Part shown: one piece after another, positions 10,271-58,338 of the stretch
Layout of the letters: each line of letters opens with the position of its first letter
Numbering within the stretch: position 1 is the stretch's first letter
DNA from: a phage
DNA: 64,000 nt
Direction: 5' to 3' (one strand)
NCBI GenBank assembly: GCA_027263115.1
Contig: GCA_027263115.1_3656.1
Notes under the pieces: model-generated
The model's input: the letters and a program-made list of their open reading frames with translations, nothing else
Databases searched by the model: none
What the model was told of the DNA's origin: nothing
Translations under genes and position numbers: made by a program

Positions 10271-10555
10271 ATGGCTATTGTTACCGCTGGCGATGTAGTA
10301 GAAATGGAAGCAAAATACTTAAAAGCGGGTATGCACATCCTACGGAATGATCAAGAGTTATTATTAACGATGGTTGACTATAATCCCGGCCAGGATTATC
10401 CAAGCATCGACTACTTTTTTGAGTATGTTGATGAAGAGTTGAAAGAGGATGAGGCATATTGCGGTGAGTTCTGCAACTTCTTTTGTCCTGATGAGGTTGT
10501 AAAGGTTATTTATCAACCTGGCGTACCTTTCCCACTGCACGCTATCAATAAATAA
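10271..10555 (+). CDS. hypothetical protein
   Basis: 94 aa, SD TAGGAG. Confidence 0.6.
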   Translation: MAIVTAGDVVEMEAKYLKAGMHILRNDQELLLTMVDYNPGQDYPSIDYFFEYVDEELKEDEAYCGEFCNFFCPDEVVKVIYQPGVPFPLHAINK

Positions 10556-10609
10556 ACCTGGCGGGGCCGAAAAGGCCCCAATTATGAAAATAAAGAGAGG
10601 TAAATCATC

Positions 10610-10843
10610 ATGATGGAACAAATTAAACGCGCTGAGGCTATTAATGGCAATGTGATCTATTTTGTCAGCAAAAACGAAAAAGGCGTACCATATGCGGCGG
10701 TAATAGTACAACCTGACGGCGATTATTGGTTTACTGTGTACGGCGCTTATTCTTTTGGGCGTCCAGTGCATGATAAAATTTTGAAAGTAGCGAACCCTAC
10801 CGGGAAGAATATCACAGCAGAAAAATTTTTTGAAAATAGTTGA
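10610..10843 (+). CDS. hypothetical protein
   Basis: 77 aa, SD AGAGAGGTAAA. Confidence 0.55.
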   Translation: MMEQIKRAEAINGNVIYFVSKNEKGVPYAAVIVQPDGDYWFTVYGAYSFGRPVHDKILKVANPTGKNITAEKFFENS

Positions 10844-10867
10844 CATGACCATATAAGACTGTAATAT
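10840..10867 (+). promoter_or_regulatory. sigma70-type promoter TTGACA-N16-TAATAT
   Basis: Hexamers then leader hairpin GGGGC/GCCCC. Confidence 0.5.
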
Positions 10868-10918
10868 ATAAATCAAAGGGGGCAACAAGCCCCACCAACC
10901 ACAAAGAGGATAAAAATC

Positions 10919-11098
10919 ATGGCTATTATTGCAAAGACTGAGATCGTAGGCTTAGATTCTATTCTACTCGCATATGAGGAAGCTATAGAAATGTATGTGG
11001 TTTCCTACGGTGAATATATCCGTGAATATAAATCTATTGATCTAGCTTTTGAATGTTATATTCGCCAGGTCAATAAAGCATATGATGATTATCGTTAA
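10919..11098 (+). CDS. small hypothetical protein (59 aa)
   Basis: ATG after AAGAGGATAAAAA; below track cutoff. Confidence 0.5.
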   Translation: MAIIAKTEIVGLDSILLAYEEAIEMYVVSYGEYIREYKSIDLAFECYIRQVNKAYDDYR

Positions 11099-11189
11099 AA
11101 TAGTTTGACAACAAACAACCATCTAACAAAGCATAATACATAAGGTGGTAGAATGATCCGCCACCTGGAACAAAGAAGAGGTAAACACC

Positions 11190-11435
11190 ATGAAAAGCAA
11201 TAAAGGTTATAACGGTTACAAAAACAAAACTCATTGGAATGTAAGCCTTTGGATTAATAACGATGAGTCATTGTACCGGTTGGCCCAAGGCTTTATTAAC
11301 GCCAATGCTAATCGTAATGATGCGGCGCGGGATATGATGCTTTTTCTGGAGCTAACCGGACAAGATAAGACCCCGGACGGCTTCAAGTACAGCACTACGG
11401 CGATCCGTGCCGCGATGGTTGGAATGAAACACTAA
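11190..11435 (+). CDS. hypothetical protein
   Basis: 81 aa, SD AAGAGGTAAA; preceded by GGTGG...CCACC leader hairpin. Confidence 0.55.
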   Translation: MKSNKGYNGYKNKTHWNVSLWINNDESLYRLAQGFINANANRNDAARDMMLFLELTGQDKTPDGFKYSTTAIRAAMVGMKH

Positions 11436-11512
11436 AAGCATATAGCCGCCTTACCCTGGGGCCGCTGCTACGGCCCCATGAATAAGGTTACTAACAGAAG
11501 AGAATAAACACC

Positions 11513-11617
11513 ATGAAACAAAAATTAATTGATGCTGTGATCCTGGTTATTGCCTTAGGTATTGGCCTGATTGCAACCATGGCTAATGTGATCTTGTCTT
11601 CCAACGGTATCGGGTGA
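11513..11617 (+). CDS. small hydrophobic peptide (34 aa)
   Basis: ATG after leader hairpin and AGAAGAGAATAAA; TM-like; shares SSNGI motif with the 5034 peptide. Confidence 0.4.
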   Translation: MKQKLIDAVILVIALGIGLIATMANVILSSNGIG

Positions 11618-50846: not shown

Positions 50847-51560
50847 TTAAATATACTCTGTTACATCCTTGAAGCTCGAAGGCTTCATGATCTTACCTTT
50901 ACTGTCAAGGAATATGATAACTTTATTACCGTTGTAGAATTCTTCCTTGGCAACAAAACCTTCATATCGACCATCAAAGCGTCGTTCAAGATCTTTAATC
51001 TCCAACTCGATTAGTTGTTCAGCAGGCATATCTGCACTGGCACCGTGTGAATACTGTAGATGGTTGACCCGTGCAAACTTGCTGTCATTCGATTTGAGAA
51101 CCTTACGCATCATCCCGCACACATCGCCGCGAAGCTGGAACAGTAAAGCTGTTGACAACTCCGCTAAGCGGTAAGCTGACGCTCTTTGCTTAGATGTGTT
51201 TTTAGCAGCGATCAGTGTATCATAGAACTCACCGATCTTGAACTTAAGACCTCGTGGATTATCAAACAGGTTTGACCACTTTTCGTGATTGTCATTAACA
51301 AGATAAGCGGCATAACTTGTGACAACGTGAAGATCGCAGGCCTCTTTTAGCAGGTGATCTCCACCATCACCTTTCTCCAGCTCTTCCAAAACTTCATTGA
51401 ACTCTTCCTCAATGAAGCTAAGCTGTAATTCGAACGGTGTGTATGATTTTTTCACTTTAGCTGCCACACGGTTCCAGTTTTCCACCCAGTTGGCAGACCA
51501 AAGGTAGTTTTCAGGTTGGGACAGTTTTTCCAGGTTGTCAATTAATTTGGTATTCAGCAT
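50847..51560 (-). CDS. hypothetical protein (possible MazG-like NTP pyrophosphohydrolase domain)
   Basis: 237 aa; acidic helix FIEEEFNEVLEELEKGD...LKEACDLHVV. Confidence 0.3.
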   Translation of the reverse strand: MLNTKLIDNLEKLSQPENYLWSANWVENWNRVAAKVKKSYTPFELQLSFIEEEFNEVLEELEKGDGGDHLLKEACDLHVVTSYAAYLVNDNHEKWSNLFDNPRGLKFKIGEFYDTLIAAKNTSKQRASAYRLAELSTALLFQLRGDVCGMMRKVLKSNDSKFARVNHLQYSHGASADMPAEQLIELEIKDLERRFDGRYEGFVAKEEFYNGNKVIIFLDSKGKIMKPSSFKDVTEYI

Positions 51561-51573
51561 TAAAGGTCTCCTT

Positions 51574-52335
51574 TTAAAGTTCCATAAAGTTTTCTACGGT
51601 CTCAATGAATGTTTTATCAGAGAAAGCGTCAACCGCCCCGTTAAACCAAACTGGGATGCCGCGATCCTCATACTGGTAAATATCACTACGTGAAATGCCA
51701 TTCTCCTCTAGATGCTGTGAGTCGTATTTGTTAACGATCAGCAGTTTGGTTCCCTTATTGCAGGCAGGGAATAGTTCCCAGTTAAAATTGATAACTGTGT
51801 TGGAACAACCTACAAGGATAACCATATCATTGCTAGTGAGAGAAGTCAACAGGTCATACATGTCTGTATACTTCGGAGCTACTTCTCCGAAGAACACCAC
51901 ATTAGGCTTAACCCAGATATACTTTCCTGCATCTACCTCAGAGTATCCAATGTCCCTAATGACGTTACTTCCTTCATCGTCATCATAGACTATTTCTGGC
52001 AAATACCCGTGGACATGTAGAATATCTTCATGTTTTACACCAGCACGCTCCAGCAAATCATCTACATTGGTGGTAAGATTGATCACACGGCCAGGCCAGC
52101 GGGAATACCACTCAGCGATCCGGAGATGCGCAAGGTTAGGATCAACACTGCCCAGAGCTACACGGCGTGCATTGTAAAAGTCATGCACCTTATAGTAGTT
52201 CTTGGCAAAGGTGTGGATGTTGCACACCTCATCGATGCTGAAATTCTCCCACATTGCAGTGCTACCAGATCGGAAAGTGGGAATACCAGATTCAGCGCTC
52301 AAACCAGCACCGGAGATAATAATCAGTCGTCGCAT
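51574..52335 (-). CDS. Sir2-family NAD-dependent deacylase / ADP-ribosyltransferase
   Basis: 253 aa; GAGLSAESGIPTFR, LTTNVDDL, LHVHGY; no obvious zinc-binding CxxC pairs. Confidence 0.8.
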   Translation of the reverse strand: MRRLIIISGAGLSAESGIPTFRSGSTAMWENFSIDEVCNIHTFAKNYYKVHDFYNARRVALGSVDPNLAHLRIAEWYSRWPGRVINLTTNVDDLLERAGVKHEDILHVHGYLPEIVYDDDEGSNVIRDIGYSEVDAGKYIWVKPNVVFFGEVAPKYTDMYDLLTSLTSNDMVILVGCSNTVINFNWELFPACNKGTKLLIVNKYDSQHLEENGISRSDIYQYEDRGIPVWFNGAVDAFSDKTFIETVENFMEL

Positions 52336-52343
52336 AAGTGTCC

Positions 52344-52694
52344 TCAGTAGATGTTTTGTTTAATCTCTATTCCAAACTTTTTAAACGAGTCAGCTGCAAG
52401 CATGAATTTACGAGCCGCTGATGGATTAGAAGTATGCACGAAAATCTTCACGTTGTCAACTACAGGAGGCTTACCAAATACAAATTTTTCCTCTAACATG
52501 CAGAAACAGTCGTACCCTTCGAAGACTTCTCCTAAATCGCTGTCAAAATGCCACTCAGAAACGCGCCTGTAGAGCTTTCTATTATCGTTAATAAAATCCA
52601 TGAACTCAGAAGAGTTCTTCAGCCAAAGAGCATCTTGGATTCCGTAATTTGACGGATCTCTCAAGTCATCCAGCCACACAATCAACTTCTTCAT
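52344..52694 (-). CDS. hypothetical protein
   Basis: Internal ATG (MKKLIVW) with ATGA coupling to upstream gene. Confidence 0.5.
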   Translation of the reverse strand: MKKLIVWLDDLRDPSNYGIQDALWLKNSSEFMDFINDNRKLYRRVSEWHFDSDLGEVFEGYDCFCMLEEKFVFGKPPVVDNVKIFVHTSNPSAARKFMLAADSFKKFGIEIKQNIY

Positions 52695-53608
52695 TGCATA
52701 TAGTCCTCGTTGTGAAAATAGCAATCAAGTATCTCACGGCGTTCCTGCTCCAGGAGGCAGTTCCACACATCTTCTGTGTAATTGCTACGAATGAAGTTTA
52801 CCATTCCGTAAAACTCTTCGTCAATACGTTTAAAGATATCATCATCCCAAATCTTCCAAGCTTTACCCCTCATTACGGCCTTCCGTGCCAAATAGTATGG
52901 AGACTTGATCTTCAGCTGCAGGTCATAAGGGTAGTAAGGCTTACGGATCATATACCCTTCGCCCATTGTTTCTGCAGCTAATTCTTTTGCATAGCTGAAC
53001 GGGATTTCACGCACAGTGTGAGGACGTTTTGCACCAAGGTATTTGGCAATCCCATCTAAAGCTGCTTCTGGTAGCATTATTCCAGAATCATTATATCTGC
53101 AACCTATCAAATATGCGCCATGGTCTTCTTGAACAATATGCGGATCTGAAGGGTGACAAATTTCAAACATGAATGTCATGTTTTCATTGCCCATAACCTT
53201 CTTGATAAGATCTAAATTACCACATTGCTCCCTGATGGTTTCTTTTGCGAGGTTACAATATGGGGAATCAAGAGACCCGGTTGTTGAGAACAATAGTTCA
53301 CCTTTATGAGATGATACCACACCGAGGAATCCGTTCTTTTTCTCTACCGCAGTAACAAGTTTACTGTCCGGTAGGTTGGTGGAGTTTTCTCCTAAGTTGA
53401 ATACTTTTGTGAAAGGCCATGCCACAACATTCCCCTCATTGCCAACAACAATACCTCGGCACTCCAGTAAACGCGGAGACAAATGCCACAGATCGTTGTA
53501 GAATACTTTTCTGGCATATTTATAGATCTTTAATCCAAGATCTGGATAATACCGACTGGTTACAAGACCTTTGTCTACTAGGTCATCTGCATTAAAATAC
53601 TTCATCAT
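52691..53608 (-). CDS. RNA ligase (Rnl2-like nucleotidyltransferase)
   Basis: Motif I KKNGF, motif IV EGYMIRK, motif V LKIKS; first ATG at 53626 lacks SD, ATG pair at 53608/53605 follows GAGGAA. Confidence 0.65.
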   Translation of the reverse strand: MMKYFNADDLVDKGLVTSRYYPDLGLKIYKYARKVFYNDLWHLSPRLLECRGIVVGNEGNVVAWPFTKVFNLGENSTNLPDSKLVTAVEKKNGFLGVVSSHKGELLFSTTGSLDSPYCNLAKETIREQCGNLDLIKKVMGNENMTFMFEICHPSDPHIVQEDHGAYLIGCRYNDSGIMLPEAALDGIAKYLGAKRPHTVREIPFSYAKELAAETMGEGYMIRKPYYPYDLQLKIKSPYYLARKAVMRGKAWKIWDDDIFKRIDEEFYGMVNFIRSNYTEDVWNCLLEQERREILDCYFHNEDYMQ

Positions 53609-53669
53609 ACGTTCCTCATTTGTCATTTTGTCAGTCTATCCTGCCACACAAATAACCTAGTGTCAACAC

Positions 53670-53698
53670 TTGAAATTAACAAAACAGTTAGGTATACT
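53670..53698 (+). promoter_or_regulatory. sigma70-type promoter TTGAAA-N17-TATACT
   Basis: In the 100-bp divergent region, upstream of the kinase gene. Confidence 0.5.
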
Positions 53699-53726
53699 AT
53701 CATTAAAATTAAAACGGAGGATTGCT

Positions 53727-54050
53727 ATGTCTAAAATGCTATATATCGTGCGTGGTCTGCCAGGGTCTGGCAAATCAACACTGGCAAATGCGCTATCTTT
53801 AGAAGGTCTGTATCCACATTTTGAGAATGACATGTTTTGGTATGACGATGACGGCAATTACAACTGGGATGCAAGTAAAGTAACACTCGCAGCAAAATGG
53901 TGCAAAGATAACGTAGAAGATATGATGCGTATGGGATACGACCGTATCGTGGTTGAAAACCGCCACGGTAATAAAAGCATTCATGATGTTCCAGACAAGG
54001 TTGTGGATCGTATGGAACGCCAGCTTAAAAACTGCATTAAACTTAAATGA
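53727..54050 (+). CDS. polynucleotide kinase-like P-loop kinase (T4 Pnk kinase-domain-like)
   Basis: 107 aa; N-terminus MLYIVRGLPGSGKSTLA parallels the T4 Pnk kinase P-loop; SD ACGGAGGA. Confidence 0.7.
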   Translation: MSKMLYIVRGLPGSGKSTLANALSLEGLYPHFENDMFWYDDDGNYNWDASKVTLAAKWCKDNVEDMMRMGYDRIVVENRHGNKSIHDVPDKVVDRMERQLKNCIKLK

Positions 54051-54057
54051 GGAATGT

Positions 54058-54612
54058 ATGAAATACTTTGTAACAAGCGATACGCACTTTCTCCACCAGC
54101 GGGTCATGGAGTTTGATTCATGTCAAAAACACAGATCTCAATATGATCACAATCTTGACAGTATGAATGCGGGAATCATCACCGAGTGGAACTCCGTTGT
54201 GTCACCTGCAGACACTGTGTTCCACCTGGGAGATATTGCGTGCACTAATGATAAGAATATCAACAACTTACTTCCAGATATTCTAAATATGTTGAACGGA
54301 CATATTATTCTTGTTCGTGGCAACCATGACACAAGGACGACTGTCAGAATTATGAAAGAGTTCGGTCATGAGGTTGTAGATTATTACGAGCTTCGCCACA
54401 ACAAGAATTTGATCTGTATGAGCCATTACCAGTTTGCAAAGTGGAACAGAAAGCCTCACGGATCAGTCCAACTGTTCGGTCATGCTCACGGAACCACACA
54501 ACAGTTGTTTGGCAGGCAGCTTGATGTCGGTTGGGATGTGTGGGGGAGACTCTTACCATTAGAAGAGGCATACCGTATTGCAATGAGTTTTGATATTGAC
54601 AGCAGGGAGTAA
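54058..54612 (+). CDS. calcineurin-like metallophosphoesterase
   Basis: 184 aa; motifs SDTHF, GDIA, GNHD; SD GAGGAA. Confidence 0.75.
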   Translation: MKYFVTSDTHFLHQRVMEFDSCQKHRSQYDHNLDSMNAGIITEWNSVVSPADTVFHLGDIACTNDKNINNLLPDILNMLNGHIILVRGNHDTRTTVRIMKEFGHEVVDYYELRHNKNLICMSHYQFAKWNRKPHGSVQLFGHAHGTTQQLFGRQLDVGWDVWGRLLPLEEAYRIAMSFDIDSRE

Positions 54613-54659
54613 TCCCTGCTATTTTAAAGAAAATTGCCACACAAGGAGAATCAGGAGAT

Positions 54660-55010
54660 ATGAAAGATGGGGATAAGCTGCTATATCTTAAAGTCCCCCT
54701 TGAAATACTATCTATGTCAAAAGTTTTGAATGACACAACTGGGGAGGTTGTTGTTCTTGACTTGTATGACAAGATTGTATACTGCTACCTGCACAACTGG
54801 TATAAGCTTGGAGGAAATTCCCGCTTCACACCAAGCACAAGGAAAATTGCAGCAGATGTTGGGATAAAGAAAACAAAAGCAGCAGCGTGCGTTAAAACTT
54901 TAGAATGTGCAGGAGTGGTTGAAACATCCACACAAGGGAGAGGTAAAAGATGCACATTTTCCAAAGTTTTGCCACCAGAAGAAGTTATTCGAATGTCAAC
55001 AACTGGTTAG
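54660..55010 (+). CDS. putative winged-helix DNA-binding protein
   Basis: 116 aa; SD AAGGAG; HTH-like TRKIAADVGIKKTKAAACVKTLECAGVVE; iteron array directly downstream. Confidence 0.5.
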   Translation: MKDGDKLLYLKVPLEILSMSKVLNDTTGEVVVLDLYDKIVYCYLHNWYKLGGNSRFTPSTRKIAADVGIKKTKAAACVKTLECAGVVETSTQGRGKRCTFSKVLPPEEVIRMSTTG

Positions 55011-57526: not shown

Positions 57527-57601
57527 GCCCTGTTAGCTTAGTGGATAAAGCAGCGGCCTTCTAAGCCGTTGACACTGGTTCGAGTCCAGTACGGGGTGCC
57601 A
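57527..57601 (+). tRNA. tRNA-Arg (anticodon TCT)
   Basis: Hand-folded cloverleaf: 7-bp acceptor, D-arm GCTT/AAGC, anticodon loop CTTCTAA, T-loop TTCGAGT, encoded CCA. Confidence 0.75.
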
Positions 57602-57605
57602 AATT

Positions 57606-57692
57606 GGGGAGTTATCCCGTAGAGGTAGCGGTGTAGACTGTAAATCTATTGTCATTGCGACTCGGGTGGTTCGACTCCACCACTCCCCACCA
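57606..57692 (+). tRNA. tRNA-Tyr (anticodon GTA), long variable arm
   Basis: Acceptor GGGGAGT/ACTCCCC, anticodon loop CTGTAAA, T-loop TTCGACT, CCA; 87 nt. Confidence 0.65.
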
Positions 57693-57805
57693 AATTTATA
57701 TTTTAGATGCATAAATAATACAGATAATGGCATTGATATTTATCGTCGTTTATACTAGTCACTAACTGCTCGAAAATCAGTGTCATTATCAGTATAATTT
57801 ACAAA

Positions 57806-57896
57806 GGAGGGTAGGGAGCAATGGTGCTCAAGCGGTCTTGAAAACCGTCCCATTGAGGATGACTCGATGATGGTTCGATTCCATTACTCTCCGCCA
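57806..57896 (+). tRNA. tRNA-Ser (anticodon TGA), long variable arm
   Basis: Acceptor GGAGGGT/ACTCTCC, anticodon loop CTTGAAA, T-loop TTCGATT, CCA; 91 nt. Confidence 0.65.
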
Positions 57897-57994
57897 CATT
57901 GTTGACCTTGTAATTAAGCGAAAGCCGGAAGCAGAACCGGATTATCAAATGTTACAGTCGTCATCGCCGACTAGCAACATGGTCAACATACTGA

Positions 57995-58093
57995 GCTAGG
58001 TAAGCCCTTTGGCAAGGGCGAGGATTTTTAATCCTGAAAATAGACGAGGTAGTCGTTGAATACATAGATGGTTCGATTCCATCACCTAGCACC
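57995..58093 (+). tRNA. atypical tRNA-like element (possible tRNA-Lys TTT with about 25-nt insertion, or pseudo-tRNA)
   Basis: Perfect 7-bp acceptor GCTAGGT/ACCTAGC, canonical T-arm GATGG-TTCGATT-CCATC, D-arm GCCC/GGGC, TTT-containing loop; about 99 nt; no encoded CCA. Confidence 0.35.
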
Positions 58094-58098
58094 TTTTT

Positions 58099-58174
58099 GC
58101 TGATGTAGCACAATTGGTAGTGCAATTGATTTGTAATCAATAGGTTGCAGGTTCAAGTCCTGCCATCAGCACCA
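58099..58174 (+). tRNA. tRNA-Thr (anticodon TGT)
   Basis: Acceptor GCTGATG/CATCAGC, D-arm GCAC/GTGC, anticodon loop TTTGTAA, T-loop TTCAAGT, CCA. Confidence 0.75.
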
Positions 58175-58175
58175 T

Positions 58176-58250
58176 GGCCCTGTAGCTGGAAGGTTCAAGC
58201 AAGCGACTCATAATCGCCAGACGGTGGTTCAATTCCACCCAGGGCCACCA
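58176..58250 (+). tRNA. tRNA-Met or tRNA-Ile2 (anticodon CAT), elongator-type
   Basis: Acceptor GGCCCTG/CAGGGCC with paired 1-72, anticodon loop CTCATAA, T-loop TTCAATT, CCA. Confidence 0.65.
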
Positions 58251-58261
58251 AATAGTAGATA

Positions 58262-58338
58262 CTCCGCGTAGCTCAGCTTGGTAGAGCGCCTGATTTGGGA
58301 TCAGGAGGTCGAGTGTTCGAATCACTCCGTGGAGACCA
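58262..58338 (+). tRNA. tRNA-Pro (anticodon TGG)
   Basis: C1-G72 acceptor, D-arm GCTC-AGCTTGGTAG-AGC, anticodon loop TTTGGGA, T-loop TTCGAAT, CCA. Confidence 0.75.

Follow-up and report, generated by a model that had tools for sequence, protein, structure and literature searches.

A probable RNA end-healing and sealing module in a Vequintavirus-type phage genome whose kinase gene carries an 87-bp deletion

Gene layout of the locus

The DNA analysed here is a stretch of 64,000 nucleotides (nt) from a phage (contig GCA_027263115.1_3656.1 of GenBank assembly GCA_027263115.1; the whole stretch is called the window below). It carries a leftward-transcribed RNA ligase gene and, divergent from it, a pair of genes for a small P-loop kinase and a metallophosphoesterase. 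An earlier reading, made from the letters and a list of open reading frames (ORFs) without database searches and called here the sequence-only reading, had proposed that the three genes form an RNA end-healing and sealing module. Our analysis points to the probable conclusion that they are indeed such a module, belonging to a Vequintavirus (rV5-like) phage, and that the kinase of this particular genome has been crippled by an 87-bp deletion. All three ORFs were found where the sequence-only reading had placed them, including its choice of ligase start, and their strands bear out the divergent arrangement. The features of the locus are as follows (aa, amino acids).

52691..53608, − strand: Rnl1-family ATP-dependent RNA ligase, 305 aa (311 aa from an alternative ATG at 53626)
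53627..53726, no strand: divergent intergenic control region between the ligase and the kinase
53727..54050, + strand: Pnk-like P-loop kinase, 29-aa deletion allele, 107 aa compared with 136 in close relatives
53946..53953, + strand: deletion junction, the single kept copy of the 8-bp repeat ATCGTGGT, inside the kinase gene
54058..54612, + strand: predicted binuclear metallophosphoesterase, aq_1665-like, 184 aa

Position 53608 is a better ligase start than 53626 because it is preceded by GAGGA 4 nt upstream and because the same start is annotated in the MaxTheCat record. The intergenic region between the ligase and the kinase is 100–118 bp long. A GGAGG ribosome-binding site lies ahead of the kinase ATG at 53716..53720, and a sigma70-like site (TTGAAA-17-TATACT, 10 of 12 positions matching) is found on the + strand at 53670..53698.

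The region 52300..54700 matches 120 phage records, nearly all of them from Escherichia phages of the genus Vequintavirus (such as rV5, Murica, MaxTheCat and 241Ecol014PP). Because 118 of these cover at least 80% of the region at 90–99% nucleotide identity, the window is assigned to the genome of an rV5-like myovirus (~137 kb); its nucleotide identity to V5-type phages is 96–97%. The same conservation, together with strong scores of profiles built from distant homologues (E-values of 6e-125 for the ligase, 9e-45 or 147 bits for the kinase, and 1e-77 for the phosphoesterase), shows that the three ORFs are genuine genes and not chance ORFs. These profiles found no further match within the 64-kb window. 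The three genes occur in more than 100 Vequintavirus genomes and, at 35–50% protein identity, in many other phages. Among the matching records are 18 GenBank entries (MG0656xx) named "Campylobacter phage" (host C. jejuni) that are ~96–97% identical to E. coli Vequintavirus over 52300..54700 and look like misattributed or contaminant phages.

Families and folds of the three proteins

The ligase is a member of the Rnl1/Trl1-type family. It matches Pfam PF09511 (RNA_lig_T4_1) with 54.8 bits against a cut-off of 28.3, and a profile of 27 homologues retrieved T4 Rnl1 as its sole match in the PDB (2C5U, E 8.5e-12; 9DO4, E ~9e-12). A single-sequence phmmer search of the PDB gave nothing at E ≤ 1, so that the profile was needed for the match. 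An AlphaFold2 (AF2) model of the ligase (pLDDT, predicted local distance difference test, 89) found T4 Rnl1 at ranks 1, 2 and 4 of a Foldseek search of the PDB (E ~1e-12), followed by the ligase domains of fungal Trl1 (Trl1-LIG) and then archaeal Rnl3. By TMq the model fits fungal Trl1-LIG (0.60–0.65) at least as well as T4 Rnl1 (0.59–0.60). Motifs I (K96-x-N98-G99), IV (E223-G224) and V (K239-x-K241) are invariant in the 27 homologues and align with K99EDG, E227G and K240xK242 of T4 Rnl1. The protein is not an equivalog of T4 RnlA, since it scores 37.1 bits against the TIGR02308 cut-off of 242.25, matching model positions 32–250 of 373 only, and since its helical C-terminal region is short (residues 243–311 in the model): about 65–70 aa follow the nucleotidyltransferase domain, compared with ~120 in T4 Rnl1. 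The family is present in 656 phage records, with Escherichia, Pseudomonas, Vibrio, Streptomyces and others as hosts.

The sequence-only reading had called this ligase Rnl2-like, an assignment that does not hold. No match to PF09414 was obtained, the profile search of the PDB returned no Rnl2 chain at E ≤ 1, and T4 Rnl2 came at rank 28 of the structural search with a TMq of 0.40. The annotation of the window should thus read Rnl1 in place of Rnl2; it should also mark the kinase as a probable loss-of-function allele.

The fold of the kinase was assessed on a full-length allele (P0122; model pLDDT 89.9), not on the 107-aa form. Its best PDB matches are the kinase domain of Clostridium thermocellum Pnkp (CthPnkp; TMq 0.77–0.78) and T4 Pnk (0.73–0.75), and the family profile matches T4 Pnk (E 3.5e-5), Pnkp1 and the CthPnkp kinase domain. 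The model thus supports a Pnk fold for the family, in line with the T4 Pnk-like P-loop kinase that had been proposed. The P-loop (G10-x-x-G13-S-G-K16-S17) and D35, which aligns with the general base Asp35 of T4 Pnk, are invariant or nearly so among 27 sequences, and both are present in the window protein. The 107-aa window protein scores below the Pfam cut-offs for AAA_33 and AAA_18. In both its lengths (107 aa here, 136 aa in relatives) the protein is a kinase domain alone, with no fused HAD (DxDxT) 3'-phosphatase domain.

The third protein keeps every motif of the binuclear metallophosphoesterases. D8xH10, G58-D59, G88-N89-H90, H123 and G141-H142xH144 do not vary among 31 homologues, and the window protein has them all; it matches Pfam Metallophos_2 (29.1 bits, cut-off 27) and Metallophos (27.1, cut-off 21.5). 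Its motifs place it in the calcineurin-like superfamily, as the sequence-only reading had proposed. The closest solved relative is Aquifex aeolicus aq_1665 (1XM7), matched over nearly the full length with E 5.6e-28. At E ≤ 10 the phosphoesterase profile also matched GpdQ, YfcE, MJ0936, Rv0805 and MPE nuclease in the PDB, and neither the CthPnkp phosphatase domain nor any lambda phosphatase chain.

Structure prediction and profile searches, the check that the sequence-only reading had proposed for itself, thus led from the ligase to T4 Rnl1, from the full-length kinase to CthPnkp and T4 Pnk, and from the phosphoesterase (by profile) to 1XM7. That reading had also described the layout as closer to bacterial Pnkp than to T4 Pnkp. 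This stands at the superfamily level: bacterial Pnkp (C. thermocellum Pnkp-Hen1; Capnocytophaga Pnkp1-Rnl-Hen1) likewise joins a Pnk-type kinase to a phosphoesterase from the binuclear metallophosphoesterase superfamily, and in structure the phage kinase model is matched best by the kinase domain of CthPnkp. The likeness of the phosphoesterase, as far as profile matches can tell, goes no further than the superfamily, because its best match is aq_1665 and no CthPnkp or lambda phosphatase chain appears at E ≤ 10, which places it in another clade. Bacterial Pnkp is also a single polypeptide, whereas the window has three separate genes on two strands, and the window ligase is of Rnl1 type, unlike the C-terminal ligase-like domain of Pnkp. 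Hen1 is not annotated in the flanking regions of the relatives, although no search aimed at Hen1 was made.

An in-frame deletion in the kinase gene

The sequence-only reading had the coordinates of the kinase ORF right and missed that it is a deletion allele. Alignments with the 136-aa proteins of close relatives reveal one in-frame gap of 87 bp (29 aa) that removes IVVSNTFTKEKHVQEYVDMAISHGYSYTV and leaves the 107-aa protein of the window. In the relatives, two copies of ATCGTGGT lie 87 bp apart, at nt 220 and 307 of the kinase gene, in the contexts ACCGT-ATCGTGGT and ACCGTGATCGTGGT, and the window retains one copy. As the deleted block is flanked by two copies of the repeat, one of which is kept, the loss has the signature of a slippage or microhomology deletion.

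In the full-length model, the deleted residues 74–102 comprise strand 73–78 (β3, one of the four strands of the sheet), helix 83–95 and half of strand 99–105 (β4). The lost segment contains VVSNT, which aligns with IISDT of T4 (in IISDTNL), the Asp85-Thr86 acceptor-site element, so that the whole element is gone from the window protein. T4 kinase activity depends on six essential residues, Asp85 among them, and Thr86 of T4 Pnk touches the acceptor phosphate (PMC2831316).

The 107-aa form is a real allele and not a one-off assembly error, since an identical protein (P0121, recorded as a hypothetical protein of E. coli O157) is found on four public contigs of 50–200 kb. It is also rare. None of the other 119 listed database homologues of the kinase is shorter than 127 aa, and the deleted block is missing from none of the 74 kinase matches in related loci. 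When a 120-bp query across the junction was searched against INPHARED, its alignments to the top-ranked records were split in two and spanned 207 bp, so that these records have the undeleted form. Fifteen of the 118 rows were inspected directly; as a perfect junction match would rank first, it appears that no INPHARED record carries the deletion. The junction was not found in complete E. coli genomes, and the allele is known from draft or Sequence Read Archive (SRA) assemblies only.

Judged from the alignments and the full-length model, the kinase of this genome is probably inactive. The sequence-only reading had taken the set to supply all three activities (5'-kinase, 2',3'-phosphatase and ligase); this would hold for the family, and it probably fails in this genome, whose kinase has lost a core beta-alpha unit. 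The alternative is that the 107-aa protein is a working minimal polynucleotide kinase and that the module is intact here. Several features tell in its favour and against an inactive kinase. The deleted gene retains its frame, the P-loop, D35 and the ENRHG...HDVP segment; the junction rebuilds an IVVEN strand in place of IVVSN (R-IVVEN resembling the lost R-IVVSN); and the remaining 107 residues are 100% identical to those of the relatives. With frame, motifs and segment kept and the strand recreated, the 107-aa kinase may have residual activity. The presence of the allele on four contigs also means that the carrier phage evidently propagated, but viability is uninformative here, as such modules are dispensable on hosts without the nuclease, an established fact in the case of T4 pnk and rnlA. 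A working 107-aa kinase is in our view unlikely, given the loss of one of four sheet strands with its flanking helix and of the segment aligned to the T4 Asp85/Thr86 acceptor site, and given that the same gap occurs in none of the listed homologues or locus matches. The window ORF also scores lower (147 bits; whole-protein E 9.4e-45) than the full-length alleles in the relatives' records L001–L003 (best-domain E 1.6e-62).

Within the kinase gene of the rV5 record, a sigma70 promoter has been predicted and annotated as P80 (66382..66410; L003 3110..3138). P80 falls within the 87 bp deleted in the window and is absent at 53946. If P80 is real, internal transcription of the phosphoesterase gene would also be lost in this genome.

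Genomic linkage, neighbouring genes and proposed function

Linkage was surveyed at 80 IMG/VR loci carrying a ligase homologue at 35–89% identity. Genes within 8 kb of the ligase were counted, using profiles for the ligase, kinase and phosphoesterase and single window sequences for the other genes.

Phosphoesterase: 62 of 80 loci
Kinase as a separate gene: 62 of 80 loci
Kinase fused to the ligase N-terminus (~430 aa): 12 of 80 loci
DNA ligase: 28 of 80 loci
MazG-like: 13 of 80 loci
Sir2: 11 of 80 loci
cREC: 10 of 80 loci

Gene order varies between loci (phosphoesterase-ligase-kinase or kinase-ligase-phosphoesterase), and the divergent layout is found only in the Vequintavirus locus. In one of the kinase-ligase fusion proteins, Pfam confirmed the AAA_33 domain, and the PHROG family phrog_8238 also unites kinase and ligase in a single protein. 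This co-occurrence through changes of gene order, together with the fusions, is strong evidence of a functional link among the three genes; with the folds and motifs, it supports a module of the healing-and-sealing type. As a kinase is present at 74 of the 80 loci and a phosphoesterase at 62, compared with 10 for cREC, 11 for Sir2 and 13 for MazG, the first two and the ligase form the conserved core, and Sir2, cREC and MazG are additions in ~145-kb Enterobacteria-phage lineages. One fusion contig (L040; 7560..8825 and 10509..11588) encodes a second RNA ligase 1.7 kb downstream, of PF09414 (Rnl2/DraRnl) type with a PHA02142 OB domain.

In the window, the three genes that the sequence-only reading had recognised are part of a larger block, whose members downstream of the ligase it had missed. 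The neighbouring genes are as follows.

52344..52694, − strand: cREC (cyclic-phosphate processing receiver-like) protein, 116 aa, with a 4-bp overlap between its start codon and the stop of the ligase
51574..52335, − strand: Sir2-family NAD-dependent enzyme, 253 aa
50847..51560, − strand: MazG-like nucleotide pyrophosphohydrolase, 237 aa
48937..50220, − strand: ATP-dependent DNA ligase, 427 aa, 2.5 kb downstream of the RNA ligase on the same strand
57527..58338, + strand: cluster of seven tRNA genes (Arg, Tyr, Ser, an atypical 99-nt tRNA, Thr, Met/Ile and Pro), from ARAGORN and Rfam tRNA matches

The cREC protein matches Pfam PF20274 (cREC_REC) with 52 bits (cut-off 27) and has the same annotation in 241Ecol014PP. 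The Sir2 protein matches Pfam SIR2 (1.7e-26) and phrog_2162 (1e-108), and its translation contains GAGxS (GAGLSAESGIPTFR), TNVDD and HVHG. Read from that translation, its NAD-binding and catalytic motifs are kept, with no CxxC pairs for the usual zinc ribbon. The MazG-like protein matches phrog_671 (9.8e-22) and no Pfam family, and its annotation in 241Ecol014PP is pyrophosphohydrolase.

The nearby DNA ligase allows a reading in which the kinase and phosphoesterase clean 5'-OH/3'-phosphate nicks for that enzyme, as a DNA-end repair set to which the Rnl1 homologue is auxiliary. The best NCBIfam match of the phosphoesterase is indeed PdeM (ligase-associated DNA damage response endonuclease), and T4 Pnkp acts on DNA too (PMC2831316). 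The PdeM match, however, reaches 20.5 bits against a cut-off of 150, and a DNA ligase lies within 8 kb at just 28 of the 80 loci. The fusion partner of the kinase is an Rnl1-type ligase and not a DNA ligase, and the nearest structural relatives of the window ligase (T4 Rnl1, Trl1 and archaeal Rnl3) are RNA ligases. We regard DNA-end repair as very unlikely. Even less probable, close to negligible, is that the Rnl1 homologue is mainly a tail-fibre attachment factor like T4 gp63 and the kinase and phosphoesterase are unrelated genes of nucleotide metabolism. Many records and phrog_562 do carry the label "RNA ligase and tail fiber protein attachment catalyst", a label inherited from T4 gp63, but the gene sits among early and nucleotide-metabolism genes (DNA ligase, Sir2, MazG-like and a helix-turn-helix regulator) and not among tail genes. 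All catalytic motifs of the ligase are invariant, and the linkage and fusion with the kinase persist in distant phages.

This neighbourhood has been described before. Iyer, Burroughs, Anantharaman and Aravind (2022; Viruses 14:1977, PMC9503650) predicted it to act in RNA repair and named phage V5; the prototypes of their sirtuin-centred "type 2" neighbourhood are Escherichia phage V5 and Proteus phage Mydo, with the calcineurin-like phosphoesterase as an optional member. cREC had been defined in a 2021 paper on jumbo phages (PMC7824862). All six members (sirtuin, T4-like ligase, cREC, nucleotide kinase, MazG and calcineurin-like phosphoesterase) lie within 50847..54612. The window has the same gene set as the V5/Mydo type and differs from it by the 29-aa kinase deletion, and in the rV5 GenBank record both ligase and phosphoesterase are labelled as such. 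For this phage group the module had thus been annotated, and its interpretation published, before the present analysis. It is ordinary apart from the kinase, and the new item here is the kinase deletion allele only. In contrast to the emphasis of the 2022 study, our survey identifies kinase, phosphoesterase and ligase as the widespread core and Sir2 and cREC as lineage-restricted additions.

The larger block raises another possibility, which overlaps with healing and sealing and does not exclude it, namely that Vequintavirus repairs RNA mainly by a yeast-type pathway that depends on NAD+. Here cREC would open the 2',3'-cyclic phosphate to a 2'-phosphate and 3'-OH, the kinase would phosphorylate the 5' end, the Rnl1/Trl1-like ligase would seal, and Sir2 would remove the junction 2'-phosphate with NAD+ like Tpt1/KptA, leaving MazG-like and metallophosphoesterase proteins to clear by-products only. 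The cREC, Sir2 and MazG-like genes immediately follow the ligase gene on its own strand, with the 4-bp cREC overlap noted above, the route was put forward for phage V5 (PMC9503650), and the ligase model fits Trl1-LIG at least as well as T4 Rnl1. On the other side are the scarcity of cREC, Sir2 and MazG in the survey next to kinase and phosphoesterase and the status of the cREC role, which is predicted; no sirtuin has been shown to be an RNA 2'-phosphotransferase, and PMC9503650 itself says that these are predictions. We hold this route to be a tentative possibility, somewhat improbable as the main one. With the same reservation, it would be a hybrid NAD+-dependent repair never shown for any virus, in which cREC is a new class of RNA 2',3'-cyclic phosphodiesterase, a Sir2 RNA 2'-phosphotransferase replaces Tpt1/KptA, and the ligase is a Trl1-like Rnl1. 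Iyer et al. published this hypothesis in 2022, so that only its proof would be new.

In the healing-and-sealing reading, which we prefer, the aq_1665-like metallophosphoesterase would remove the 2',3'-cyclic or 3' phosphate, the small Pnk-like kinase would phosphorylate the 5'-OH end, and the Rnl1-type ligase would seal the break through a lysyl-AMP intermediate at K96. The cREC, Sir2 and MazG-like proteins of the Vequintavirus ligase operon are predicted helpers in cyclic or 2'-phosphate clean-up. In this genome the 5'-kinase step, and hence the whole pathway, would most likely be crippled by the slippage deletion, which fits a conditionally dispensable counter-defence function. By analogy with T4, the substrate would be tRNA broken in the anticodon loop and the role that of countering host tRNA nucleases. 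A Pnk kinase together with a binuclear metallophosphoesterase, as in CthPnkp, gives all the end healing that T4 Rnl1 needs, as shown by tRNA splicing in vitro (PMC1920235).

Some observations weigh against this interpretation. The kinase family has no counterpart of T4 Arg38, which in T4 Pnk binds the acceptor 3'-phosphate (the aligned stretch reads D35-M-F-W/F-Y), and it has Asn (S-N-T) where T4 has Asp85. The nearest solved relative of the phosphoesterase, aq_1665, is a structural-genomics deposit labelled "hypothetical protein" and gives no functional information. Kinase-ligase fusion loci have no phosphoesterase within 8 kb, so that this enzyme is not obligatory. A promoter scan of 53627..53726 turned up no promoter-like site facing leftward into the ligase operon. 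In the literature on RNA repair in Vequintavirinae, or on a phage metallophosphoesterase acting with Rnl1, we found only the T4, Cth and fungal experiments.

The T4 Pnkp and Rnl1 pair, which counters the PrrC anticodon nuclease, shares with the Vequintavirus set an Rnl1-family ligase, a Pnk-fold kinase whose motifs include a P-loop and a general-base Asp, and the logic of healing before sealing. The phage kinase family differs in being stand-alone (~136 aa) without a fused phosphatase, and the 3'-end healing enzyme is instead a binuclear metallophosphoesterase. Fungal and plant Trl1 (LIG-KIN-CPD) resembles the phage proteins in its Rnl1-type LIG fold and, at the 12 fusion loci, in having kinase and ligase in one polypeptide, but the phage fusions are ordered KIN-LIG and lack a 2H cyclic phosphodiesterase domain. 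Large phages use RNA-repair modules to reverse the damage when defence nucleases of the host cleave tRNA. To our knowledge, the T4 Pnkp/Rnl1 pair is the only such module with experimental support, and the split module of a mini-kinase, an aq_1665-like phosphoesterase and an Rnl1 ligase is far more widespread than that pair. Assays would show what the aq_1665 phosphoesterase clade does, and likewise a very small polynucleotide kinase. The deletion allele could serve as a natural knockout or control in host-range tests of what the pathway defends against.

The sequence-only reading had also pointed to phage tRNAs 3.5 kb away. The seven-gene cluster is real and begins 2.9 kb past the end of the phosphoesterase gene. 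The atypical 99-nt tRNA (57995..58093, + strand) was not typed by ARAGORN. Its fold (minimum free energy −34.8 kcal/mol, z −4.0) is a cloverleaf whose variable region holds an additional stem-loop, and its anticodon loop reads UUUUUAA. A MaxTheCat feature annotated as tRNA-Lys differs from it at a single nt. The window gene reads as a tRNA-Lys(UUU) with a type-II-like long variable arm. An intron requiring the ligase was considered for this gene; the fold is a cloverleaf with a long variable arm and no interrupted anticodon loop, which leaves splicing unsupported. The anticodon nuclease PrrC has tRNA-Lys(UUU) as its classical target. The number of tRNA genes differs among near-identical phages, with seven in the window, six annotated in MaxTheCat and four in 241Ecol014PP, where an HNH endonuclease gene lies just downstream of the cluster.

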